Positions 4,273 to 53,179 of a stretch of 64,000 bases of DNA are shown here, piece after piece; positions within the stretch are counted from its first letter, which is position 1, and the number at the start of each line of letters is the position of its first letter. Source of the stretch: a phage; sequence record OR896157.1. One strand, given 5' to 3'. Below the pieces are notes generated by a model. That model searched no databases and had not been told where the DNA came from. It was given only the letters and a program-made list of their open reading frames with translations. The translations under genes and the position numbers were made by a program.

Positions 4273-4292
4273 AAAGGGCCCGAAGGCCCTTT
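4273..4292 (-). terminator. GC hairpin AAAGGGCC-UUCG-GGCCCUUU (UUCG tetraloop); copy 1 of 4
   Basis: perfect palindrome GGGCCCGAAGGCCC flanked by A3/T3; lies between regA-distal small ORF and gene 43 leader. Confidence 0.5.
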
Positions 4293-4294
4293 AA

Positions 4295-10567: not shown

Positions 10568-10587
10568 AAAGGGCCCGAAGGCCCTTT
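10568..10587 (-). terminator. GC hairpin AAAGGGCC-UUCG-GGCCCUUU; copy 2 of 4
   Basis: identical palindrome GGGCCCGAAGGCCC; downstream of ORF 10586-10774. Confidence 0.5.
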
Positions 10588-10774
10588 AAATTTTACTGTA
10601 TGTGATAGTTACTTCGGCTTTTGCTTTATCATATGACATCTTGAACCGCCTCATCATTTCAGTCTTGCCGTTATGAATCTTTGCATAATCAATAGCTCTT
10701 TCTAAAGCTTCAGCCGAATAAACAGTTCCGTTGCGGGATACTACAGCAGCTTTTAATATTACAGCTTCCACCAT
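10586..10774 (-). CDS. hypothetical protein
   Basis: 62-aa ORF in 47-55 interval. Confidence 0.4.
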   Translation of the reverse strand: MVEAVILKAAVVSRNGTVYSAEALERAIDYAKIHNGKTEMMRRFKMSYDKAKAEVTITYSKI

Positions 10775-13597: not shown

Positions 13598-13627
13598 ATA
13601 GTAACACCTTCTGCAACAGATGTAAAC
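13598..13627 (-). promoter_or_regulatory. T4-type early promoter (GTTTAC-N18-TACTAT)
   Basis: minus-strand -35 GTTTAC and -10 TACTAT with 18-nt spacer. Confidence 0.6.
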
Positions 13628-21672: not shown

Positions 21673-22446
21673 TTAAATTTTTACTTTTGTTGGACGCTTA
21701 AAGAACGAATGAGTGCTATCGTCTTTAGCATGCTCAAAAGTTGCAGAGAATTCAATAATTCCACGATAATCCATCGGAACTGCTTTTGGTAATGAGCCAT
21801 AAACAGTAGCACCGTTTTCAAGACGGACAGTCATTTTGACTTGCATTCCATAATAGTCTTCCCAGCACTTAACTGAAACGACTTTACCTTTCACTGTTTG
21901 CTTACCAGTGGGTGCTTCACCTTTATTCTTTTTGAATGATTCATATAGTTCATCAAAGAATTTCTTAGAAGCTTCTTGAATAGCCATAAGAATGTTCTTA
22001 TGAGCTCTGACTTCAACCATCATAACAGTGGTGAAATCTTCAAGTTCCCAGCGTTTGTAAGGCTCACGGACCTCGATAGGGCAACCGTAAAGCTTAAGTT
22101 CAACATACATTGCTGCAGTTAAACGAAGTTTCCACCATCCATGGTCTCTTGTGTACTCTGGTTTGTCAAAGTAATCAAGTTCCGTAACGTATGGAAGATA
22201 ACTACCAGCGTGATATGCTTCCACTTCGCCATGTTCATTTTCCCAGAGATAACCATCGAACGGAGCATGTGGACGATCATCAATTCCCCAGGTTGGAGCA
22301 ACCACCTTATCAAATCCTTCACGACCGTAGTGGGTCTTCGCCCATCCAGCATTCAATTCCAAAGCGCGTTCTTCAACTTTCGCCCGGCGTGCAGCATGTG
22401 CTTTACGATTTTCATCTAAGATTGAGTCGATGATTTCAGTTAGCAT
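21673..22446 (-). CDS. hypothetical protein (257 aa)
   Basis: track ORF trimmed to ATG at 22446 with GGAGA SD, 23 nt downstream of predicted TSS. Confidence 0.55.
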   Translation of the reverse strand: MLTEIIDSILDENRKAHAARRAKVEERALELNAGWAKTHYGREGFDKVVAPTWGIDDRPHAPFDGYLWENEHGEVEAYHAGSYLPYVTELDYFDKPEYTRDHGWWKLRLTAAMYVELKLYGCPIEVREPYKRWELEDFTTVMMVEVRAHKNILMAIQEASKKFFDELYESFKKNKGEAPTGKQTVKGKVVSVKCWEDYYGMQVKMTVRLENGATVYGSLPKAVPMDYRGIIEFSATFEHAKDDSTHSFFKRPTKVKI

Positions 22447-22476: not shown

Positions 22477-22506
22477 ATCATATACTAACTTTTTGTTGTT
22501 GTAAAC
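22477..22506 (-). promoter_or_regulatory. T4-type early promoter (GTTTAC-N18-TATGAT)
   Basis: minus-strand -35/-10 with 18-nt spacer; drives ORF 21673-22446. Confidence 0.6.
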
Positions 22507-22516
22507 GGTTGAATGC

Positions 22517-22548
22517 GGATTCACCAGAACGGTTGAGAGGAACTTTCT
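22517..22548. repeat. 32-bp element GGATTCACCAGAACGGTTGAGAGGAACTTTCT, copy A (identical copy at 45549-45580)
   Basis: exact 32/32 repeat 23 kb apart, both immediately upstream of the -35 of an early promoter and downstream of a terminator. Confidence 0.7.
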
Positions 22549-22580
22549 TAGGAAGGATGATAAATCATATTACGAGGATA

Positions 22581-22605
22581 CAAAAATGCCCCAGCGAAGC
22601 CGGGG
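22581..22605 (-). terminator. intrinsic terminator
   Basis: minus-strand CCCCGGC-UUC-GCUGGGG followed by AUUUUUGUAU. Confidence 0.55.
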
Positions 22606-22611
22606 CGAACT

Positions 22612-23040
22612 TTAGTGATAAGCTGGAGTATTAGGGTCGCCAGAGAACCACACAGACTTTTCTATAACAGCTGTTTGCATTTGATTGTTATAAAGAGTCT
22701 CATTGATAATTTTTTCCATCTCAAATAAATGCGCAGCTTGCAGTTGCTCACGGTCCATTGCGATTAAAGCTTTACATTTTTCTTTCATATAAGTTCGTTT
22801 GCCAATCTGTCTTCCTACCAATGGCACTTCACTTCCCAATTTAAGCCAGTTATTAAAAGCAGCATCCGTAGAGTTTTTGTATTCTGCTATAGAATCAGTC
22901 ATACGATTATAAAAGTCTAATTTTGCTTCTTTGTTGTTCTTTCGAAGCATTTCTAAGGCTGTAGATTTCAAACTCACCGCTTCCACTCCTCTGTTCGACC
23001 TATTCGGTCCGGGTGACAATTCCAGAAATAGTCCTTGCAC
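22612..23040 (-). CDS. hypothetical protein
   Basis: 142-aa ORF; start uncertain (overlaps upstream ORF). Confidence 0.4.
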   Translation of the reverse strand: MQGLFLELSPGPNRSNRGVEAVSLKSTALEMLRKNNKEAKLDFYNRMTDSIAEYKNSTDAAFNNWLKLGSEVPLVGRQIGKRTYMKEKCKALIAMDREQLQAAHLFEMEKIINETLYNNQMQTAVIEKSVWFSGDPNTPAYH

Positions 23041-26268: not shown

Positions 26269-26305
26269 TTTATTCTCCGAGTTTCTATTTGTTTGGTATG
26301 AGGTA

Positions 26306-26335
26306 ATAGTATCATCATCTCATACCGTTGTAAAC
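26306..26335 (-). promoter_or_regulatory. T4-type early promoter (GTTTAC-N18-TACTAT) embedded in 8-bp dyad
   Basis: minus-strand motifs; GGTATGAG...CTCATACC flank the -10. Confidence 0.6.
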
Positions 26336-26342
26336 AATATTT

Positions 26343-26560: not shown

Positions 26561-26589
26561 TTTTGTTCTCCTTTGGTTTTGATAGTGCT

Positions 26590-26619
26590 ATAATACCATA
26601 TGCTATAGCACTTGTAAAC
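26590..26619 (-). promoter_or_regulatory. T4-type early promoter (GTTTAC-N18-TATTAT)
   Basis: minus-strand motifs; AGTGCTATA...TATAGCACT dyad around -10. Confidence 0.6.
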
Positions 26620-35930: not shown

Positions 35931-35950
35931 TCTCCTTTGTTGATAGGGCT

Positions 35951-35980
35951 ATAGTATCATAGCCCTTGGAGAAAGTAAAT
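35951..35980 (-). promoter_or_regulatory. T4-type early promoter (ATTTAC-N18-TACTAT) within palindrome GGGCTATAGTATCATAGCCC
   Basis: minus-strand motifs upstream of regB; 27-nt block identical to 53138-53164. Confidence 0.55.
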
Positions 35981-37102: not shown

Positions 37103-37437
37103 GTTGGCTCCAAAGAAATGACCTTGCGGTCGTAAGTAATTAAGCTTGAAGTTTTAATGCCTTTGCATGGGCCAGAGATAAACTCTACTTCAAACCATGG
37201 ATGCTCATTCATCAGACCCACATCTGGCGAAGTGCAGAGGAACAACGAGCCTTTAAAAGGCCCATCTAAAAATCGATACAGCTTTGGCTCAAGAACTGCC
37301 CCATCTGAAAATTTGATATGCAGAATATTAATCAAAGATTCTACATTACATTTTCCAGTAGAACGCAAAAAGCGGATATATTCACCTGTAGTCATTCTAA
37401 GGGCCCGAAGGCCCTTATTAAAATTTTCTTTCATCAT
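37018..37437 (-). CDS. hypothetical protein (start ambiguous)
   Basis: 139-aa ORF; ATGATGA coupling start at 37437 has SD, but a GGGCCCGAAGGCCC hairpin lies in codons 8-12; alternative ATG at 37395. Confidence 0.4.
   Translation of the reverse strand: MMKENFNKGLRALRMTTGEYIRFLRSTGKCNVESLINILHIKFSDGAVLEPKLYRFLDGPFKGSLFLCTSPDVGLMNEHPWFEVEFISGPCKGIKTSSLITYDRKVISLEPTWRKLLSTSPTTWLNLSAAGFQTKANRI
37398..37417 (-). terminator. GC hairpin GGGCC-UUCG-GGCCC; copy 3 of 4
   Basis: identical palindrome; inside or just upstream of ORF 37018-37437 start. Confidence 0.45.
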
Positions 37438-41425: not shown

Positions 41426-41445
41426 ATAGGGCCCGAAGGCCCTTT
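41426..41445 (-). terminator. GC hairpin GGGCC-UUCG-GGCCC; copy 4 of 4
   Basis: identical palindrome directly upstream of the SD of ORF 41039-41413. Confidence 0.5.
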
Positions 41446-41446
41446 A

Positions 41447-42392: not shown

Positions 42393-42422
42393 ACTATAAC
42401 ACACTTGACTTCTGTTGTAAAC
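42393..42422 (-). promoter_or_regulatory. T4-type early promoter (GTTTAC-N18-TATAGT)
   Basis: minus-strand motifs. Confidence 0.55.
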
Positions 42423-42801
42423 GGTTCTTTCTCTGGTTCTTTCTACAAATTCTTATGAAATTTTCAATAGGTTCTTCTGGGGTCTTAATTGGATAACATT
42501 CTTTCCAATTCCAACCACCTAGCAAGTCAAAGATTTGGTCAGGAAGAGAATCCCATGGATGTTCTCTTTCACTGAGTTGAATTATGATGTCGCCAGCAGC
42601 TTCTCTGATTCCGGTATTAAGTTTTCCGTTACAAATCACAACATTCATGAGTGCAGAAAGACAACAACTATCATGGCTTCCATATTTGTTCGGATAGTAA
42701 AAATAATGGTCAATGATATAGCAGTAATTAGGATTTAAGCCTTTCATAGTGTTCCTCCAGTGATTCTGGGGAAACTTTTCAGTCTCCCCATATATTACCA
42801 T
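42394..42801 (-). CDS. hypothetical soluble protein with the same C-terminal motif (ENFIRICRK)
   Basis: 135-aa ORF, no TM helix, shares FIxxCR tail with the four membrane paralogs; 3' end overlaps the promoter (see 42393-42422). Confidence 0.45.
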   Translation of the reverse strand: MVIYGETEKFPQNHWRNTMKGLNPNYCYIIDHYFYYPNKYGSHDSCCLSALMNVVICNGKLNTGIREAAGDIIIQLSEREHPWDSLPDQIFDLLGGWNWKECYPIKTPEEPIENFIRICRKNQRKNRLQQKSSVL

Positions 42802-45118: not shown

Positions 45119-45160
45119 ATTTCATTTTATTCTCCGATTCAATTTTGTTTTGATGAGGTA

Positions 45161-45190
45161 ATAATACCACACTACCTCATCATTGTAAAC
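45161..45190 (-). promoter_or_regulatory. T4-type early promoter (GTTTAC-N18-TATTAT)
   Basis: minus-strand motifs, 9-bp dyad GATGAGGTA...TACCTCATC around -10. Confidence 0.6.
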
Positions 45191-45194
45191 AATT

Positions 45195-45455
45195 TTATTT
45201 CATTCTGTTGAAATATTTTTCAGCTGCTTCGTCATCTTTATGGTAGGTCTTAGTCAAAGCTACCGGGCGAACGTTGAAAGTGTTAAGAGAATCGCGAGCA
45301 ATCACGATAGTAAACCAACGGCCATCATCATTACCTAAAGCAGCATAACGATAAGTATCCCATACGAATTGCTTAATGCTTTTGATATCGTTCAAAGAAT
45401 TTGCTAAATCTGAATGACCGTTCTTAGCGAGTTTTTCTGTGATGATGTTGAACAT
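45195..45455 (-). CDS. hypothetical protein
   Basis: 86-aa ORF. Confidence 0.5.
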   Translation of the reverse strand: MFNIITEKLAKNGHSDLANSLNDIKSIKQFVWDTYRYAALGNDDGRWFTIVIARDSLNTFNVRPVALTKTYHKDDEAAEKYFNRMK

Positions 45456-45487: not shown

Positions 45488-45516
45488 ATAATAACACATC
45501 TAGAACCAATGTAAAC
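45488..45516 (-). promoter_or_regulatory. T4-type early promoter (GTTTAC-N17-TATTAT)
   Basis: minus-strand motifs. Confidence 0.55.
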
Positions 45517-45548: not shown

Positions 45549-45580
45549 GGATTCACCAGAACGGTTGAGAGGAACTTTCT
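45549..45580. repeat. 32-bp element GGATTCACCAGAACGGTTGAGAGGAACTTTCT, copy B
   Basis: identical to 22517-22548; same position relative to promoter and terminator. Confidence 0.7.
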
Positions 45581-45610
45581 AGAAGGGAATGATTAAACCA
45601 TTGGCTATAC

Positions 45611-45649
45611 ATACAAAAATGCCCTGAGTGTCATAGAGATACCCAGGGC
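45611..45649 (-). terminator. intrinsic terminator
   Basis: minus-strand GC stem (GCCCUG...CAGGGC) followed by AUUUUUGUAUG. Confidence 0.5.
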
Positions 45650-45656
45650 ATTAAAA

Positions 45657-46310
45657 TTACTTAGTTTCTACCTTTTTGAGTGCTTTGGCACGAACGTCCA
45701 CACGGTGCGCCGACTCTATATATTTGCGAACTTCTTTAGCTATGCCAGTAGTGTAAGCTACAGTTTCGACTGTCGTATACAAGTCCATCAGCTCAGGAGT
45801 GTCGATGTTGCTGATGTTACGACCTCTGCGGATTTTAGCAAACTGAGTTTTAAGTGCAGCACCATCTTTAGAAATTTCGTTGAGAAGAGCGAGAATCTTC
45901 TCATACTTGTTTACGATGCCTTTAACGTCAAACTTGTAAAGGTCTGCGCTAACTTTAGGAGCCGGCGTCGCTTTAGGTGTCTGAACTGGAGCTGCAGGTT
46001 TAACTGCTGGTGCCGCTTTAGGAGCAGGAGCTTTCACTGCAGCAGCTTTAGGTTCTTTTGGTGCTTTTGCCGGAGATTTAATGCCTCTCAGAGTTTTAAA
46101 AGCATTTTGTACTTTGTAATAATCTTGTGGATTAGAAGTTCCAATACCATAAAGTTTTTGGACTGATGCAGCAAATTTCATGAAGTCGTTACGTTCGCCA
46201 GGAGGAACTAAATCCATAGCACTCTGCCACTTCATTTTAGTCATGCGTTCGCCAGCTTCAGTAATCATGTTGAAGCTAGATTCTGTAATAAATTCTTTAA
46301 AGTTAAGCAT
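45657..46310 (-). CDS. internal head protein-like (capsid-targeting sequence MLNFKEFITE) with Ala/Pro/Lys-rich linker
   Basis: track ORF trimmed to internal ATG 46310; N-terminus resembles T4 IP targeting peptide; low-complexity KAPKEPKAAAVKAPAPKAAPAVKPAAP segment. Confidence 0.5.
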   Translation of the reverse strand: MLNFKEFITESSFNMITEAGERMTKMKWQSAMDLVPPGERNDFMKFAASVQKLYGIGTSNPQDYYKVQNAFKTLRGIKSPAKAPKEPKAAAVKAPAPKAAPAVKPAAPVQTPKATPAPKVSADLYKFDVKGIVNKYEKILALLNEISKDGAALKTQFAKIRRGRNISNIDTPELMDLYTTVETVAYTTGIAKEVRKYIESAHRVDVRAKALKKVETK

Positions 46311-46803: not shown

Positions 46804-46879
46804 TGGTGCCGGTTAACGGATTCGAACCGCTGACCCTCTCATTACAAATGAGCTGCTCTACCAACTGAGCTAAACCGGC
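46804..46879 (-). tRNA. tRNA-Thr (anticodon UGU)
   Basis: manual fold: acceptor GCCGGUU/AACCGGC, D GCUC..GAGC, anticodon loop UUUGUAA, T-loop GGUUCGAAUCC, CCA encoded. Confidence 0.8.
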
Positions 46880-46880
46880 T

Positions 46881-46965
46881 TGGTGCATCAAGAGGGATTC
46901 GAACCCTCAATCCTTTCGGCGGGGCATTTTAAGTGCCCTGTGTATACCAGTTCCACCATTGATGC
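46881..46965 (-). tRNA. tRNA-Leu (anticodon UAA), class II
   Basis: acceptor GCAUCAA/UUGAUGC, anticodon loop CUUAAAA, 13-nt variable arm, T-arm GAGGG-UUCGAAU-CCCUC. Confidence 0.8.
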
Positions 46966-46971
46966 GAAATT

Positions 46972-47056
46972 TGGAGCTAGGAGTGAGATTCGAACTCACG
47001 AAGGGATACCCGGCGGATTTGCAATCCGCTGCCTTTGGCCACTCAGCAACCCTAGC
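46972..47056 (-). tRNA. tRNA with class-II architecture and anticodon GCA (Cys-type)
   Basis: acceptor GCUAGGG/UCCUAGC, anticodon stem-loop GCGGA-UUGCAAA-UCCGC, 13-nt variable arm CGGGUAUCCCUUC; assignment tentative. Confidence 0.5.
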
Positions 47057-47060
47057 AAAT

Positions 47061-47138
47061 TGGTCGAGGTAGAGGGATTCGAACCCGTCGACCTGTGGAT
47101 TAGAAGTCCACTGCTCTATCCAGCTGAGCTATACCCCG
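47061..47138 (-). tRNA. tRNA-Arg (anticodon UCU)
   Basis: acceptor CGGGGUA/UACCUCG, D GCUC..GAGC, anticodon loop CUUCUAA; T-stem has only 3 clean pairs. Confidence 0.7.
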
Positions 47139-47142
47139 AGTG

Positions 47143-47268
47143 TGTTCAGACAGGACTCGAACCTGTAAGCATGTTCTTGCGGCGTTTTACCACCGTCGTC
47201 AGCATATGATTCAATATGCGAACTCAAAAGGTGTTGGACCCCTTGTCTACCAATTCCAGCACTGAACA
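47143..47268 (-). ncRNA. 126-nt tRNA-like stable RNA candidate (possibly rnaC/rnaD-type)
   Basis: 7-bp acceptor-like helix UGUUCAG/CUGAACA and canonical T-arm ACAGG-UUCGAGU-CCUGU enclose ~93 nt with D-loop-like AAUUGGUAGA but no canonical anticodon arm. Confidence 0.4.
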
Positions 47269-47278
47269 ACTTTATTTA

Positions 47279-47503
47279 TTACATATCAACTTGAGTAAAC
47301 CAGTTGATTTTGAAATACTCATCAAAATGAAGAGCAGGTTCAACTTGAGTATCTTCCTCAAGAAGAATTAAATTCTTTCTTACAATCGGGTCAAGATGAG
47401 TTGTGTTTAAGCAGCTATCATGCCAATATGTAAGAACTCGATTTGATTCAGTATCAACGAGATAACGAACATTCATATCAGGATGTCGGTACAGATTAAT
47501 CAT
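47279..47503 (-). CDS. hypothetical protein
   Basis: 74-aa ORF. Confidence 0.45.
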   Translation of the reverse strand: MINLYRHPDMNVRYLVDTESNRVLTYWHDSCLNTTHLDPIVRKNLILLEEDTQVEPALHFDEYFKINWFTQVDM

Positions 47504-47506
47504 AAT

Positions 47507-47956
47507 CTATTTCTCTTGAAGCATTTTGCGTAAACGATAGAGCTGATTACAAAATTCCTTTTCAGTCAAAACTGTTTCAGAGATTTTGTTCTTGCCCATA
47601 CTGTGGGTTAATGTTGCGTTACGAGTAGCAATCAATGCTTTTTGGAATCCAGTGTTTTGAGCAAGTGCGTCATAAGCTCCAGTTAAAAGATTCTGGTATG
47701 CTTCAGATGCTCGATGAATAGGAACACCCTTCCAATAAAGTGTTTGAGTAGGCCACCAACGCTTCTTCTTACCTTTGAACTTTGCTGCCTTTCCAACCAA
47801 TGTGCAAACATGAGCTTGCATTTCAGGGTTAGAAAATTTGAGGGATTGTAAAAATCCCTCCATTGAAGCACATTCTACACCATCATAAACGAAAGCATGT
47901 GGTGCAAAGTTACTTAAAGCACAAGAAGGATATGAACTTCCAGAGCCAATGTCCAT
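47507..47956 (-). CDS. NADAR/YbiA-like protein (DUF1768), candidate ADP-ribose glycohydrolase
   Basis: 149-aa ORF; SNFAPHAFVYDGVECASMEGFLQSLKF resembles remembered E. coli YbiA core (SNFA..DG..SEHYFQAQKF); downstream W...ALxAT pattern also shared. Confidence 0.5.
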   Translation of the reverse strand: MDIGSGSSYPSCALSNFAPHAFVYDGVECASMEGFLQSLKFSNPEMQAHVCTLVGKAAKFKGKKKRWWPTQTLYWKGVPIHRASEAYQNLLTGAYDALAQNTGFQKALIATRNATLTHSMGKNKISETVLTEKEFCNQLYRLRKMLQEK

Positions 47957-48187
47957 TTAATTACCGTGAGATATTCTAGAAGGTTTCTTACCAAAATAAT
48001 ATTCATATGAGCCATCTAAACGACCTGCTTTAGTGCGGCAATATGAATCCCATTTCTTATAATGCCGCCATTCATCATTGTATCTTGGATGACGGTCAGC
48101 GATTAAAATCTCTAATGGCCAACCAGGCGCAAAGGAACGGAGCCGTTCGACCTTTCTAATGTATCTTTTCTTTAAGATTTTCTTCAT
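47957..48187 (-). CDS. hypothetical basic protein
   Basis: 76-aa ORF. Confidence 0.45.
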   Translation of the reverse strand: MKKILKKRYIRKVERLRSFAPGWPLEILIADRHPRYNDEWRHYKKWDSYCRTKAGRLDGSYEYYFGKKPSRISHGN

Positions 48188-48405
48188 ATAGATTCCGACA
48201 TTACGTGAGTAGTTCTCTTTCTGATTGTAAATTGAGTTAATTCATCAACTTCACCACAACGCCAAGCGTCATCTTCAGTTTCAAAACCAAGAGCCTCGAA
48301 TAAGTTGCCTAAACGCCAACCTTCGTCAAACTCGGGGTCTCCTGAAAAATAGTAATAGTAATCGCCAGTTACTAAATCTTGAATTACAAAATCAAACTTT
48401 TCCAT
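48184..48405 (-). CDS. hypothetical acidic protein
   Basis: 73-aa ORF. Confidence 0.45.
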   Translation of the reverse strand: MEKFDFVIQDLVTGDYYYYFSGDPEFDEGWRLGNLFEALGFETEDDAWRCGEVDELTQFTIRKRTTHVMSESI

Positions 48406-48902
48406 CAGATACTTACCACAGTAATAGCTTCAGGAGCTTTAGGAATAACGATATCTTCTTCAATGTAGAAGAGCTTAAATGTTTCAGCTACACGCATAAA
48501 GTCAATATCATAACCGACTGGAGTTCCAATCAATTCTTGAATCTTATCCATCACTTTATACTGAACTTGATAGAAATCTTCAAGACGAGCATCGAATTCA
48601 TCTTCAGTATAATCACCTTCTGGGATTACAAAGCCAAGCACTTCTGAACAGAACTCTGGAGTGATTTCTTCATTTTCAACACAGTATTCAAAGAAAGCAT
48701 CACCGGAATAATCTTCATTACCCATTCCATTAGGGTCTGAATTATCAGATGCAAAACATTTAGCAACGGCACACCAACCTGAAACGTGTCTAGCATTTAC
48801 AGCATAAATCACATTCTCTTGATAATCATCGCCATCGTTTTCCCATGATACACATGATACTGCATAACCTTTAGGGATAGTTTGACCAAAGCGGAGTTCC
48901 AT
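48405..48902 (-). CDS. hypothetical acidic protein
   Basis: 165-aa ORF. Confidence 0.5.
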   Translation of the reverse strand: MELRFGQTIPKGYAVSCVSWENDGDDYQENVIYAVNARHVSGWCAVAKCFASDNSDPNGMGNEDYSGDAFFEYCVENEEITPEFCSEVLGFVIPEGDYTEDEFDARLEDFYQVQYKVMDKIQELIGTPVGYDIDFMRVAETFKLFYIEEDIVIPKAPEAITVVSI

Positions 48903-48912
48903 AATATTTCCT

Positions 48913-49287
48913 TCAATTAAATGGTGGAAGAGATTTCTTATATAAATCTATCATCATTCGCCATTTAGCAATTACTTTAGAATACGGAGATTTATGAGAG
49001 AATTGCGAAATGTCAGAATAATCAAGTTCAGGCAGTGGAGTTAAATGACCCATCAGCTCACGAGGAAATTGATGAAAACAATTCATCAAATCTTTGTAAA
49101 CATAATCAAGTAAGTCTTTAACATCAAAGAATTGGGTATTTAGTCCTTCTTTGGAATAACGATATTTCAAAAATTTCCAATGACCGGACTTAGAATCTTG
49201 AGTAAACGCGTAATCACTATGAAGCATGATATCGCGAACAAAATCTTCAGAAAAGAAGATGGAGTGAGTGCAACCATAATAAATCAT
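48913..49287 (-). CDS. hypothetical protein (124 aa)
   Basis: track ORF trimmed to ATG 49287 (GAGGA SD) so it no longer overlaps tRNA-Met. Confidence 0.5.
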   Translation of the reverse strand: MIYYGCTHSIFFSEDFVRDIMLHSDYAFTQDSKSGHWKFLKYRYSKEGLNTQFFDVKDLLDYVYKDLMNCFHQFPRELMGHLTPLPELDYSDISQFSHKSPYSKVIAKWRMMIDLYKKSLPPFN

Positions 49288-49305
49288 AATATTTTCCTCA
49301 GAATT

Positions 49306-49382
49306 TGGTGACCCCAGCAGGACTCGAACCTGCAACCTAGCGATTATGAGTCGCGTGCTCTAACCAATTGAGCTATAGGGCC
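49306..49382 (-). tRNA. tRNA-Met (anticodon CAU), elongator-type
   Basis: acceptor GGCCCUA/UGGGGUC, D GCUC..GAGC, anticodon loop CUCAUAA, T-arm GCAGG-UUCGAGU-CCUGC, CCA encoded. Confidence 0.8.
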
Positions 49383-49409
49383 AAAGTCCTCCTAAGAGGA
49401 CCGAGGGTA

Positions 49410-49634
49410 TTATTCAACCATGAAATCTGCTACTTCATCAAAGTCGTTATTGATGACAACAGTAAATGGCAGAGCTTCATCACTTGTTTTGATAGTCAGC
49501 TTAACAAAACCATCAACAGTTTCAACCAAACCAACGATTTTATCTGAACGCACTACAGCACGAGCTACGTCAACAATTTTACCAGTCATTGCAAATGTAG
49601 CGATTTGGTTAACTTCAACAACGATACGTTTCAT
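49410..49634 (-). CDS. hypothetical protein
   Basis: 74-aa ORF. Confidence 0.45.
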   Translation of the reverse strand: MKRIVVEVNQIATFAMTGKIVDVARAVVRSDKIVGLVETVDGFVKLTIKTSDEALPFTVVINNDFDEVADFMVE

Positions 49635-49695
49635 TCTTTTTCCTTAGTGGTTTTGATAAGGTAATTATATACTGAATTTTTAAAGCGTTTTCACT

Positions 49696-49729
49696 AAAAA
49701 GCCCCGTAACAGATTTCTCTGCTCGGGGC
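49696..49729 (-). terminator. intrinsic terminator at the distal end of the tRNA array
   Basis: minus-strand GCCCCG...CGGGGC stem followed by UUUUUAGUG. Confidence 0.55.
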
Positions 49730-49735
49730 GTCATT

Positions 49736-49810
49736 TGGTGGGAAGTGTTGGAATCGAACCAACCTCTCATGCTCTTCAGGCACGCGCTAATCCATCTCAG
49801 CTAACTTCCC
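49736..49810 (-). tRNA. tRNA-Phe (anticodon GAA)
   Basis: acceptor GGGAAGU/ACUUCCC, anticodon stem-loop CGUGC-CUGAAGA-GCAUG, T-arm GUUGG-UUCGAUU-CCAAC. Confidence 0.65.
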
Positions 49811-49813
49811 GAT

Positions 49814-49890
49814 TGGTCGGTGCGGCAGGATTTGAACCTGCGACCCCTTGGTCCCAAACCAAGTGCTCTACCAAACTGAGCTACACACCG
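49814..49890 (-). tRNA. tRNA-Pro (anticodon UGG)
   Basis: acceptor CGGUGUG/CGCACCG, D GCUC..GAGC, anticodon loop UUUGGGA, T-arm GCAGG-UUCAAAU-CCUGC. Confidence 0.85.
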
Positions 49891-49896
49891 TTAATT

Positions 49897-49971
49897 TGGA
49901 GCATCCAGAGAGAATCGAACTCTCATCTACTGGGTGGAAGCCAGTCATAATAGCCGCTATACGATGGATGC
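49897..49971 (-). tRNA. tRNA-Gly (anticodon UCC)
   Basis: acceptor GCAUCCA/UGGAUGC, anticodon stem-loop ACUGG-CUUCCAC-CCAGU, T-arm GAGAG-UUCGAUU-CUCUC. Confidence 0.8.
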
Positions 49972-49978
49972 AATTTGT

Positions 49979-50070
49979 ACGGAACGCCTGGATTCGAACC
50001 AGGTTAAATTGCGATTGACGTCACAATTTATCTTATGAAGGCCATGCCTCTACCATATCCGAACGTTCCG
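49979..50070 (-). tRNA. atypical tRNA-like gene / possible pseudo-tRNA with CAU-type anticodon loop (UUCAUAA) and a 9-bp hairpin insertion
   Basis: perfect 7-bp acceptor CGGAACG/CGUUCCG and T-arm CCUGG-UUCGAAU-CCAGG, but weak D and anticodon stems and a 26-nt perfect hairpin before the T-arm. Confidence 0.35.
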
Positions 50071-50121
50071 TCAAAAACGCTACTCGGCTTACGGCTTAGG
50101 CAATTCCTCGAACCGATAATT

Positions 50122-50195
50122 TGGCAGGCCCCGTAGGAATCGAACCCACGTCACTGAGGTTGGAGCTCAGGATAATACCACTATACGAGAGACCT
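50122..50195 (-). tRNA. tRNA-Trp (anticodon CCA)
   Basis: acceptor AGGUCUC/GGGGCCU (two G-U), anticodon stem-loop CUGAG-CUCCAAC-CUCAG, T-loop UUCGAUU. Confidence 0.7.
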
Positions 50196-50199
50196 AAAA

Positions 50200-50293
50200 T
50201 GGAGGAAGCGGTGGGATTCGAACCCACGGACCGTATCACTACGGCCTCCGCATTTCAAGTGCGGTGCAATTAACCAGACTCTGCCACGCTTCC
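50200..50293 (-). tRNA. tRNA-Ser (anticodon UGA), class II
   Basis: acceptor GGAAGCG/CGCUUCC, anticodon stem-loop CCGCA-CUUGAAA-UGCGG, long variable arm, T-arm GUGGG-UUCGAAU-CCCAC. Confidence 0.85.
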
Positions 50294-50297
50294 GAAT

Positions 50298-50373
50298 TGG
50301 GGTGACCGATGGGAGTTGAACCCATGACTACGAGAATCACAATCTCGAGTTCTACCAACTGAACTACGGCCAC
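50298..50373 (-). tRNA. tRNA-His (anticodon GUG)
   Basis: acceptor GUGGCCG/CGGUCAC, D GUUC..GAAC, anticodon stem-loop CGAGA-UUGUGAU-UCUCG. Confidence 0.85.
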
Positions 50374-50587
50374 ATCAATATTCACTCCAGCAATCATGAT
50401 GCCTTCACACGAAATTGAGAGAAGAGTGATCAGTTCAACCCTTGTAGACGCGTCAAGTAAATATTGATGTGACAGCTTATTTAAGAAGAGTGAGAGTCCC
50501 AGTCTTGTACGGAGTAACCATTTATGCATTGGCAGCTATCGCGCGGTTCGCACTTCCGATAAATGGACTTACCGTTACACTCTAATT

Positions 50588-50662
50588 TGGCTGGACTATC
50601 TGGATTCGAACCAGAGATACCGGAGTCAAAGGCCGGTGACTTAACCGCTTGTCTATAGTCCA
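50588..50662 (-). tRNA. tRNA-Gln (anticodon UUG)
   Basis: acceptor UGGACUA/UAGUCCA, anticodon loop CUUUGAC, T-arm UCUGG-UUCGAAU-CCAGA. Confidence 0.8.
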
Positions 50663-50668
50663 ATTGTT

Positions 50669-50745
50669 TGGAGGCGGGTGATGGACTCGAACCATCGCGT
50701 AACGGGATATGAACCCGTCATTCTACCAACTGAAGTTAACCCGCA
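50669..50745 (-). tRNA. tRNA-Met (anticodon CAU), initiator-like features
   Basis: anticodon stem ACGGG/CCCGU with three consecutive G-C pairs next to loop UUCAUAU; position 1:72 mismatched; T-arm GAUGG-UUCGAGU-CCAUC. Confidence 0.65.
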
Positions 50746-50898
50746 TCTATCCGGATTCTTGAAGTACTAACAAGTAGCTTGATGTAGAACACGCTAAAGA
50801 TATAATCTTACGAATATAGAGCTTATTCCGTGGGAACAAACAGCTTCGTCCTCGGCATTATCTTACAGGACTCTGACTTATCTTCAAGAACTGCCTCG

Positions 50899-51363
50899 TT
50901 ATTTTATGAACTTATTTATGAATCGTCTAGCTTGAGTATGACTGACTCCAAGTTCATTTGCAAATTTTACTAATGCACCACGTTTTGTGAAATCAATAGA
51001 ATTATATAAATCTATTCTTAAAGCAATTTCATCTGCAGTGAATTTATGAGCATGATTTTCTGATATTTTTATTTTTGTTTCATCAGAATGATTATGTCCA
51101 GTAAAACCAGTAGATACGATTCTTCCATTTGCGCCAGCGTCTTTAGCATTTTGCGCATTAGTTGCGCAATAAATGTTATCCAAAGAATATGGTCCAACAT
51201 CTCCTTTACGACACATACAATAATTATCTGAGGCTCTACCGCGCAAATGATATTTGCCAGTAGCTTTCCACCATGATAGCCATTCATCAAATGTCAGTTT
51301 AAATTCAATACCTCTTGATTTAGCATGCACTTTTTGCATGCGATACTTTTCATAATCTTTCAT
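50899..51363 (-). CDS. putative freestanding homing endonuclease-like protein (nuclease-like N-half, HTH-like C-half) inside the tRNA array
   Basis: 154-aa ORF; N-terminal GIEFKLTFDEW...NYCMCRKGDVGPYSLDNIYCATNAQNAKD, C-terminal helix-turn-helix-like; T4 carries segB at the analogous place. Confidence 0.4.
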   Translation of the reverse strand: MKDYEKYRMQKVHAKSRGIEFKLTFDEWLSWWKATGKYHLRGRASDNYCMCRKGDVGPYSLDNIYCATNAQNAKDAGANGRIVSTGFTGHNHSDETKIKISENHAHKFTADEIALRIDLYNSIDFTKRGALVKFANELGVSHTQARRFINKFIK

Positions 51364-51377
51364 ATTACTCTCATATT

Positions 51378-51454
51378 TGGCAGTGCTGACGGGTTTCGAA
51401 CCCGCGATCTCTCCCGTGACAGGGGAGTGTCTTGACCATCTCGACTACAGCACT
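51378..51454 (-). tRNA. tRNA-Asp (anticodon GUC)
   Basis: acceptor AGUGCUG/CAGCACU, anticodon stem-loop CUCCC-CUGUCAC-GGGAG, T-loop UUCGAAA. Confidence 0.85.
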
Positions 51455-51699
51455 ATAAATTTACTTTCGTGAGTATGGGATTACCCTCAAGCCTTCCGGA
51501 AAGCTGAATAGGCGTTATTGGCTCTCATATACCCGTGCACAGATATAATCTTCATTAACGCAATAACTTCATCAATATACTCCGAAAGTAAACTTTCGGC
51601 GCCGTATTTAATTTTGACTGTGTAGTTATCGTTGAGGGAACTCACAGACAGGGATTAAAGTGCCGACGACTTATCAGAACGTCTTCTGACTTCTACATT

Positions 51700-51785
51700 T
51701 GGCGGGCCGTGCAGGTATCGAACCTGCCTAGTCATTTCTGACACGGATTAACAGTCCGTCGCTTACCCTCTCAGCCAACGACCCA
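51700..51785 (-). tRNA. tRNA with anticodon GUU (Asn-type) and a 15-nt variable arm
   Basis: acceptor GGGUCGU/ACGGCCC, anticodon stem-loop ACGGA-CUGUUAA-UCCGU, extra hairpin GUCA-GAAA-UGAC, T-arm GCAGG-UUCGAUA-CCUGC. Confidence 0.55.
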
Positions 51786-51789
51786 AATT

Positions 51790-51864
51790 TGGTTCTCCGT
51801 AAGAGAATTGAACTCTTCTTTCCGACGTGAAAGGCCGGCGTCCTAACCGATAGACGAACGGAGA
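51790..51864 (-). tRNA. tRNA-Glu (anticodon UUC)
   Basis: acceptor UCUCCGU/ACGGAGA, anticodon stem-loop CCGGC-CUUUCAC-GUCGG, T-arm AAGAG-UUCAAUU-CUCUU. Confidence 0.85.
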
Positions 51865-51865
51865 T

Positions 51866-51943
51866 TGGTAGGACGTGAGGGAGTTGAACCCATCGACATT
51901 CCGATTAAAAGTCGGATGCTCTAACCAACTGAGCTAACGTCCT
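51866..51943 (-). tRNA. tRNA-Lys (anticodon UUU)
   Basis: acceptor AGGACGU/ACGUCCU, D GCUC..GAGC, anticodon stem-loop UCCGA-CUUUUAA-UCGGA; T-stem only 3 clean pairs. Confidence 0.75.
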
Positions 51944-51981
51944 GTAGATATTTATAATAACAAAAATATCTTTAAGCAAAT

Positions 51982-52057
51982 TGGTGGGAATAACTGGGCT
52001 CGAACCAGTGACCTAACGATTATCGGTCGTTTGCTCTACCAACTGAGCTATATTCCC
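51982..52057 (-). tRNA. tRNA-Ile (anticodon GAU)
   Basis: acceptor GGGAAUA/UAUUCCC, D GCUC..GAGC, anticodon stem-loop AACGA-CCGAUAA-UCGUU (C at position 33). Confidence 0.7.
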
Positions 52058-52063
52058 TGAATT

Positions 52064-52151
52064 TGGTGGGGAGTGATGGAGTCGAACCACCCGAGTCGCA
52101 ATGACAACAGATTTACAGTCTGCACCGCTACCTCTACGGAATTAACTCCCC
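52064..52151 (-). tRNA. tRNA-Tyr (anticodon GUA), class II
   Basis: acceptor GGGGAGU/ACUCCCC, anticodon stem-loop GCAGA-CUGUAAA-UCUGU, long variable arm; 5 nt between acceptor and D-stem. Confidence 0.75.
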
Positions 52152-52995: not shown

Positions 52996-53149
52996 CGAGT
53001 GTAAGTACTACGCTACTGATGAGTTCAGAATTTGAAAGGAACGGCCATCCGAAGATTGAAGTTCCAAGTGCTCCCAGGGTTACTACAGTAAAGATGTTTC
53101 CGATGATTTCGCAACGTTTCATTTTTAATCTCCTTGTGTTGATAGGGCT

Positions 53150-53179
53150 ATAGTATCATAGCCCTCAAGGAAAGTAAAC
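53150..53179 (-). promoter_or_regulatory. T4-type early promoter (GTTTAC-N18-TACTAT) within palindrome GGGCTATAGTATCATAGCCC
   Basis: minus-strand motifs; 27-nt block identical to 35939-35965; positioned to transcribe the small ORFs and tRNA array. Confidence 0.55.

Follow-up and report, generated by a model that had tools for sequence, protein, structure and literature searches.

An exact 32-bp repeat upstream of two early promoters contains the two-part core of a box conserved in terminator–promoter cassettes of Karamvirus and related T4-type phages

Introduction

What is an identical sequence of 32 bases doing upstream of two early promoters of the same phage, when T4-type early promoters are thought to be constitutive on injection and driven by their strength, and when their cassettes are seen mainly as vehicles for gene shuffling? 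We addressed this question in a window of 64,000 nucleotides (the whole stretch of phage DNA analysed, record OR896157.1, to which all positions refer) and in related phages. A full-text literature search with pieces of the sequence returned one unrelated paper on Candida albicans and nothing relevant, and a search for work on Karamvirus promoters gave nothing relevant either.

Results

The 32-mer, GGATTCACCAGAACGGTTGAGAGGAACTTTCT on the + strand, occurs at positions 22517–22548 (copy A) and 45549–45580 (copy B) with 0 mismatches, which confirms the identity claimed in a first-pass annotation, and it was matched 0 times in 100 dinucleotide-preserving shuffles of the window. No third copy was found within the 64-kb window when as many as 3 mismatches were allowed, and with a profile of the longer box described below, constructed from 23 copies, A and B were the only matches there, the next best hit having an E value of 0.66. 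Because the adjoining bases differ at either end, the exact repeat is 32 bases at most. A local self-comparison, of the kind that had been proposed as a check, added a further 14-mer, common to 22578–22591 and 45611–45624, that covers a T-run and the start of a hairpin. Pairwise alignment also paired the two loci at their ATCAT palindrome regions, their CCGTTTACA −35 sequences and their GGAG ribosome sites, in agreement with the earlier remark that the flanks are similar as well.

All genes around both copies lie on the − strand, and the element is therefore to be read on this strand, on which all features of the two loci given below are located. Copy A then reads AGAAAGTTCCTCTCAACCGTTCTGGTGAATCC, with a two-part conserved core at 22519–22548, and the motif carried by the 32-mer is AGAAAGTTCCTCT-nnn-CCGTTCTGGTGAAT. 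Conservation is highest in the 32-mer within a box of about 55 bases (22517–22570 at copy A), which has a terminator on one side and an early promoter on the other and shows no more than a weak dyad (AGAAAG-N11-CGTTCT). The stop codon of the upstream gene comes first, then a hairpin with ATTTTTGTAT behind it and, after some 10 bases that vary, a ATGATnnATCAT-type palindrome. A pyrimidine tract of 9 bases leads into the core AGAAAGTTCCTCTCAACCGTTCTGGTGAAT, which is separated by a spacer of differing length from CCGTTTACA; TATGAT or TATTAT stands 16–17 bases further on, ahead of GGAG and ATG. This order bears out, on the − strand, the placement of the repeat between a terminator hairpin and an early −35 at both places.

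At locus A, a gene for a DUF7203 protein of 108 aa (22612–22938) ends at an intrinsic terminator (22578–22606, GCCCCGGCTTCGCTGGGGC plus ATTTTTGTAT), whose hairpin (22588–22606, −16.3 kcal/mol) has a stem preserved in CkP1 by compensatory changes. The less conserved 5′ part of the box, which comprises the palindrome ATGATTTATCAT and the pyrimidine-rich tract CCTTCCTAA (22549–22568), precedes the 32-mer, and the end of the box (GGT) lies 17 bases from the −35 of early promoter A (TTTACA-17-TATGAT, 22477–22505). At locus B, a gene of PHROG 2280 (about 217 aa, 45657–46310) ends at an intrinsic terminator of another sequence type (45611–45649, GCCCTGGGT...ACTCAGGGC plus ATTTTTGTAT; hairpin 45621–45649, −20.6 kcal/mol), followed by the imperfect palindrome ATGGTTTAATCAT and the pyrimidine-rich tract TCCCTTCTA (45581–45601), the 32-mer and, after 39 bases that include an A/T-rich tract, early promoter B (TTTACA-16-TATTAT, 45488–45515). 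The GGAG stands 7–10 bases ahead of the ATG, at 22446 and 45455, of the first gene behind each promoter; these genes code for proteins of unknown function of 257 aa (PHROG 4750, 21673–22446) and 86 aa (PHROG 2678, 45195–45455), respectively. The start of the tRNA cluster is 500 bases further upstream of the PHROG 2280 gene; the cluster holds 19 tRNA genes at 46807–52151 (−), 1.2 kb transcriptionally upstream of copy B.

No DNA-binding domain is known in the genes adjoining the box, and for the flanking proteins the only matches were to families without an assigned function. The 257-aa protein had no match in Pfam or the PDB; its gene is kept, with about 70% identity at the protein level, in many T4-type genera, the majority of them without the box. 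Its last ~100 residues are similar to Microbacterium phage proteins, one of them bearing the annotation of an ssDNA-binding protein.

The structure at both loci is a terminator–promoter cassette of the PeSL type, a known kind that is composed of a terminator stem-loop, a sigma-70-like early promoter, a Shine–Dalgarno sequence and a start codon (Arbiol et al., 2010, PMC2839356; Comeau et al., 2014, PMC4122927). As in PeSLs, both box loci have a terminating stem-loop upstream of the promoter, a sigma-70-like early promoter with a spacing of about 17 bases (17 and 16) and, at the 3′ end, the Shine–Dalgarno sequence and start codon of the downstream gene. The box cassettes are also like PeSLs in that they lie in hyperplastic early-gene regions, beside small genes inserted, deleted or replaced between close relatives, and in that several similar cassettes are present per genome, between which mosaic sequences suggest recombination. 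In PeSLs, however, the stem-loop is located just upstream of the promoter and the upstream feature is limited to a generally A/T-rich region (PMC2839356, PMC4122927), whereas in the box cassettes the distance from the T-run to the −35 is 57 to 80 bases, filled by a specific conserved box that is not A/T-rich and whose conservation far exceeds that of the promoter or the hairpin type. This additional two-part box is absent from the PeSL descriptions in both papers (PMC2839356, PMC4122927) and is restricted to 1–3 cassettes per genome. Three ordinary units of the window, at 13626, 26982 and 31438, differ from the box cassettes in having the usual close arrangement of hairpin and promoter without the box.

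The early promoters are of the T4 type, CCGTTTACA-N16/17-TAnnAT, and the box is found at just 2 of about 12 of them in the window. Promoters A and B, as predicted by a consensus scan, each match 10 of 12 consensus positions. Another early promoter has a tandem AGAAAGAACC-AG-AGAAAGAACC (42421–42444, −) directly against its −35 (CCGTTTACA); relatives carry one copy of this unit (L009, L015) or two (PG7, as in the window), and it has AGAAAG..CC and AACCGTT in common with the 32-mer.

Both loci match Karamvirus phages (CC31, PG7 and relatives, of Enterobacter, Klebsiella, Cronobacter and Erwinia) with 93–99% identity, and the window is that of a CC31/PG7-like T4-type phage of this genus. With a 46-base query, the box was found at 102 places in 60 phage records, in 1–3 copies each, from the genera Karamvirus, Moonvirus (Moon, Merlin, CF1, KM16 and NM4.3) and Gelderlandvirus (S16, STML-198, CGG4-1 and others), the recorded hosts of which are all enterobacteria. 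Rather than being absent or unconserved in all relatives, the outcome that would have told against the first-pass annotation, the box is near-invariant across these 60 records and three genera. Its copies occupy three loci, all in variable early-gene regions: locus A in the nrdC–tk region, locus B directly after the tRNA cluster, near e.6, and locus C after topoisomerase gene 52. One of the records matched at both loci, PQ898399.1 (Enterobacter phage SonariX, 248,734 bases), showed the same identity as the 172-kb vB_Ecl_id4496 in every search; its length seems too large for the genus and could reflect an assembly running past the genome end.

In Marfavirus, Winklervirus and Kanagawavirus, an ortholog of the 257-aa gene and a similar early promoter follow directly after the previous gene, and neither hairpin nor box was found upstream of it; since these sister genera have the ortholog without them, the module is accessory and not needed for expression of the 257-aa gene. 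A 17-base pattern searched against 185,579 species genomes gave 48 matches, approximately the number expected by chance and none with the flanks of the box; no bacterial genome was found to carry it, and a host origin of the box is not supported by these sequences. In metagenomes, 62 matches to the pattern included 2 true copies of the box, both on contigs. The two copies of PG7 and of Pet-CM3-4 differ from each other by one base, and the identity of A and B in the window reflects clade-wide conservation more than recent duplication.

Compared with S16, the window is 95% identical at 22530–22600, while identity is 57–65% in the promoter spacer, about 40–50% in the upstream gene and 85–90% at the start of the downstream gene. 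Among 23 distinct versions of the box, tallied from 29 contexts, variation in the core falls mostly in three adjacent central positions, TCT[C/T/A][A/G][A/G]CC, and of the pyrimidine tract and the palindrome a small number of alternative types exist. The left half is damaged in three copies (Moon B, AGAAAAACTC; UoN_LG358 C, CCGCGTTCC; CkP1 B, GTTTC), all of which keep the right half. This right half was intact in every copy retrieved by the broader CCGTTCTGG pattern or by coordinates, although its invariance is partly a product of the search, as the patterns by which most of the copies were gathered demanded a portion of the core. Some of the conservation could likewise represent spread and not selection, since exchange between genera is visible in the left flank of Merlin B, which resembles that of Karamvirus A.

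Between GGT, with which the core ends, and TTTACA there are 15, 17, 26, 27, 37, 38 or 39 bases and no other number, that is, three classes of 15–17, 26–27 and 37–39 bases that lie about one helical turn apart. A test for a periodicity of 10.5–11 bases gave p = 0.002 when the seven values were counted and approximately 0.03 when 3–4 independent classes were counted, with few truly independent indel events behind either figure. Assuming transcription starts from the usual promoter geometry, the box would be centred near −62/−64, −73/−74 and −84 to −86, and copies of the middle and long classes have a UP-type A/T-rich tract separating the box from the −35. The hairpin is 39–41 bases from the core at loci A and B and 29 bases at locus C; because the distance of 39–41 bases is even more constant than that to the promoter, the box could be tied to the terminator instead, or this stretch may simply have had no indels.

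Copies of the box within one genome share variants of their own. The CGA centre and the TCCTTCCAA tract occur in CkP1 A and B alone, Moon loci A and C have about 75 bases in common with private variants that include CAG and ATAATCAATCAT, and copy A of a Karamvirus (L019) has a B-type tract; such variants, common to the copies of one genome, indicate gene conversion. Across loci and genera, the hairpin, palindrome and tract types and the promoter are combined differently: Merlin B joins a B-type hairpin to an A-type palindrome and tract, and the first downstream gene codes for the 257-aa protein, small ORFs, the 86-aa protein or a lipoprotein. In L009 (IMG/VR UViG 3300045988_118042, ~1720–1900), the 86-aa gene is missing and the promoter is a hybrid of those of the window at 45515 and 45189, indicating that the gene was deleted by a crossover between two adjacent promoters, a promoter-to-promoter deletion of the kind described for PeSL cassettes (PMC2839356, PMC4122927). 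The mosaic flanks and the private variants within genomes lend support to the recombination hotspot that had been listed among the possible functions of the repeat.

Discussion

Our preferred reading, to which we give about an even chance of being correct, is that the box is a two-part protein-binding site, helically phased upstream of an early promoter, which doubles as a patch for gene conversion and cassette exchange. A sequence-specific protein, the host's or the phage's, would contact two halves, AGAAAGTTCCTCT and CCGTTCTGGTGAAT, between which three bases are free to vary, and the site would be kept on one face of the helix relative to the promoter. From this upstream position, the bound protein would modulate transcription like a class I activator, which is the direction of effect that we infer. 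The shared sequence would also act as a homology patch through which the copies within one genome homogenise each other, and around which terminators, promoters and downstream genes are swapped, with the box itself and not its neighbours as the presumed site of exchange. A narrower version, which we put forward tentatively, is that the box is the operator of an unrecognised phage or host regulator of a few cassettes of early accessory genes, phased on the helix and travelling with the shuffled cassette.

A regulator-binding site was among the functions first suggested for the repeat; the conservation pattern and the helical phasing favour it, and the site is still a putative one, no binder having been found among its neighbours. 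CRP class I sites are centred at −61.5, −72.5 and −82.5, and the box resembles sites of this class in that its predicted centres would be stepped by about one helical turn and in its two conserved halves with a tolerant centre. It differs from them in having no clear dyad, and the promoter starts used here are themselves inferred. The other suggested function, a promoter-upstream (UP) element, is not supported. The box does lie upstream of a very strong promoter, as a UP element would, but whereas such an element is A/T-rich and found from about −40 to −60, the core of the box has 14 G+C in 30 bases and is located too far upstream, beyond −53, and in many copies the place of a UP element, downstream of the box and ahead of the −35, is taken by a separate A/T tract of the AAAAATTTTT type.

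The same data could be read with no regulatory role at all, the box being only a recombination patch or a selfish dispersed repeat in which homogenisation within genomes and exchange during co-infection mimic conservation. Such a reading, which we regard as possible but unlikely, would account for the private variants within one genome and the mosaic flanks, and also for locus A, where hairpin and linker are near-identical between S16 and Karamvirus while the linker is not conserved at other loci; PeSL cassettes are, moreover, documented to recombine, with mini-circles assayed by inverse PCR on infected cells, and recombination in the T4 system is said to need less than 50 bases of homology (PMC2839356). 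Homogenisation alone, however, does not predict uneven constraint, with a free 3-base centre, a decaying left half and a right half intact in the copies examined, nor the phased spacing to the promoter, and the one-base difference between the copies of PG7 and Pet-CM3-4 persists. Degraded PeSLs of which only a −35 is left have been described (PMC4122927), and the box could similarly be half a PeSL, the upstream half left from a former early promoter and now at most a docking site for RNA polymerase. It contains AACCGTT, the same bases that precede TTTACA in real promoters, and AGAAAGWWCC, which occurs four times in the window, each time upstream of an early promoter (twice in the box copies and twice in the tandem at 42421, where it abuts CCGTTTACA). 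Since both motifs are shared with promoters, the box may descend from the upstream half of one, but a fossil would be expected to drift, whereas the box exceeds every other intergenic stretch at the locus in conservation; TTCTGG makes a poor −35, and a −10 at 16–18 bases is absent from every copy. The conservation therefore argues for a function gained or kept since, even if the box is promoter-derived, and we consider its survival as a mere remnant improbable.

Readings in which the box acts as RNA, or from the other strand, fare less well. In T4, ribosome sites are masked in long early transcripts, and the box could be an element of terminator read-through transcripts, such as a pyrimidine-rich anti-Shine–Dalgarno or Rho-loading sequence that controls the downstream gene. 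ATCATCCTTCCTAA and TTCCTCTC are C/U-rich and G-poor, and several downstream genes have a ribosome site, AACGGAG, with which CUC..CGUU could pair; the downstream ribosome sites differ, however, and both terminators are strong. When the element was folded on either strand, and when the two intergenic regions were folded in full, no stable structure specific to the element emerged (−7 kcal/mol for the element by itself), nor did a conserved one. The sole long-range pairing, of the palindrome arm with GGTGAATC, shows one compensatory change in S16 but is broken in Moon, CGG4-1 and the B-type copies. An Rfam scan of the whole window at gathering scores returned tRNAs only, with no match for the box, and we think an RNA element quite improbable. 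On the + strand, a consensus scan gives a promoter-like site at the same place in both copies (TTGAGA-17-GATGAT/AATGAT), which could produce antisense RNA into the end of the upstream gene, and its ATCAT (= ATGAT) part is conserved. The T, T and G of the putative −35, the three bases that sigma-70 needs most, are nevertheless the most variable positions of the core (TTGAGA, CTGAGA, TTAAGA, TCGAGA and TTTAGA), and the + strand has neither a terminator nor a conserved product. Because TTG is the variable triplet, we rejected this promoter, and of all the readings it is the one to which we give least credence.

The left half of the box might instead be bound by RcsB, a host regulator of envelope stress, by itself or together with a partner, in which case both early operons would respond to conditions at the host envelope. 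With the last A as the one exception, TAAGAAAGTTCCTC fits every position of the RcsB box, TN(G/A)GAN4TC(T/C)NA (PMC7913699, PMC3950696), and of the RcsAB box TaAGaatatTCctA; RcsB with its partner BglJ acts phase-dependently from upstream sites (PMC3950696), and the recorded hosts are all enterobacteria. Against this, the match is to a low-information motif, with an estimated ~0.1 chance matches per box, and was picked after many consensus sequences had been compared; the first T varies (CAAGA, CTAGA), a key flank of the site is not conserved, and the better conserved right half is left unexplained. Overall, RcsB seems a very unlikely binder.

Other candidates were set aside at the box. By-eye comparison with the consensus sequences of CRP, FNR, IHF, Fur, DnaA, NusB boxA, sigma-54 and the LacI family turned up no match that was convincing or conserved. 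GGAACTT on the + strand is identical to the sigma-E −35 heptamer, but a TCAAA-type −10 at 16 bases is absent from all copies. A small ORF starting at the + strand ATG in GGATGAT was rejected, its frames ranging from 8 to 25 or more codons with neither length nor sequence conserved, as were − strand ORFs, the frames of which contain stops.

That the box surpasses its own promoter in conservation, and does so in 1–3 cassettes per genome, suggests that certain early operons are selected for an additional layer of control or as targets of exchange. If the operator reading were true, it would add gene-specific control to T4-type early transcription. The genes headed by the box are of unknown function and variable between relatives, as is typical of genes for host adaptation or anti-defence, and the box therefore marks a small set of candidates. 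Were it a recombination patch only, it would still illustrate cleanly how dispersed intergenic repeats of a lytic phage undergo gene conversion.

Two further features of the window concern its other promoters and terminators. At other early promoters (26577–26618, 35938–35979, 53137–53178, 26292–26338 and ~45150–45189, all −), an inverted repeat of 8–9 bases brackets the −10, with arms that differ by promoter, for example AGTGCTATA...TATAGCACT, AGGGCTAT...ATAGCCCT, GGTATGAG...CTCATACC and ATGAGGTA...TACCTCAT; the two promoters with the 32-mer are without a clear repeat of this kind. The hairpin AGGGCCCGAAGGCCCTTTA occurs four times, at 4275–4293, 10570–10588, 37400–37418 and 41428–41446, three of the copies being identical and two having 29 more similar bases upstream, and it is probably a reused terminator.
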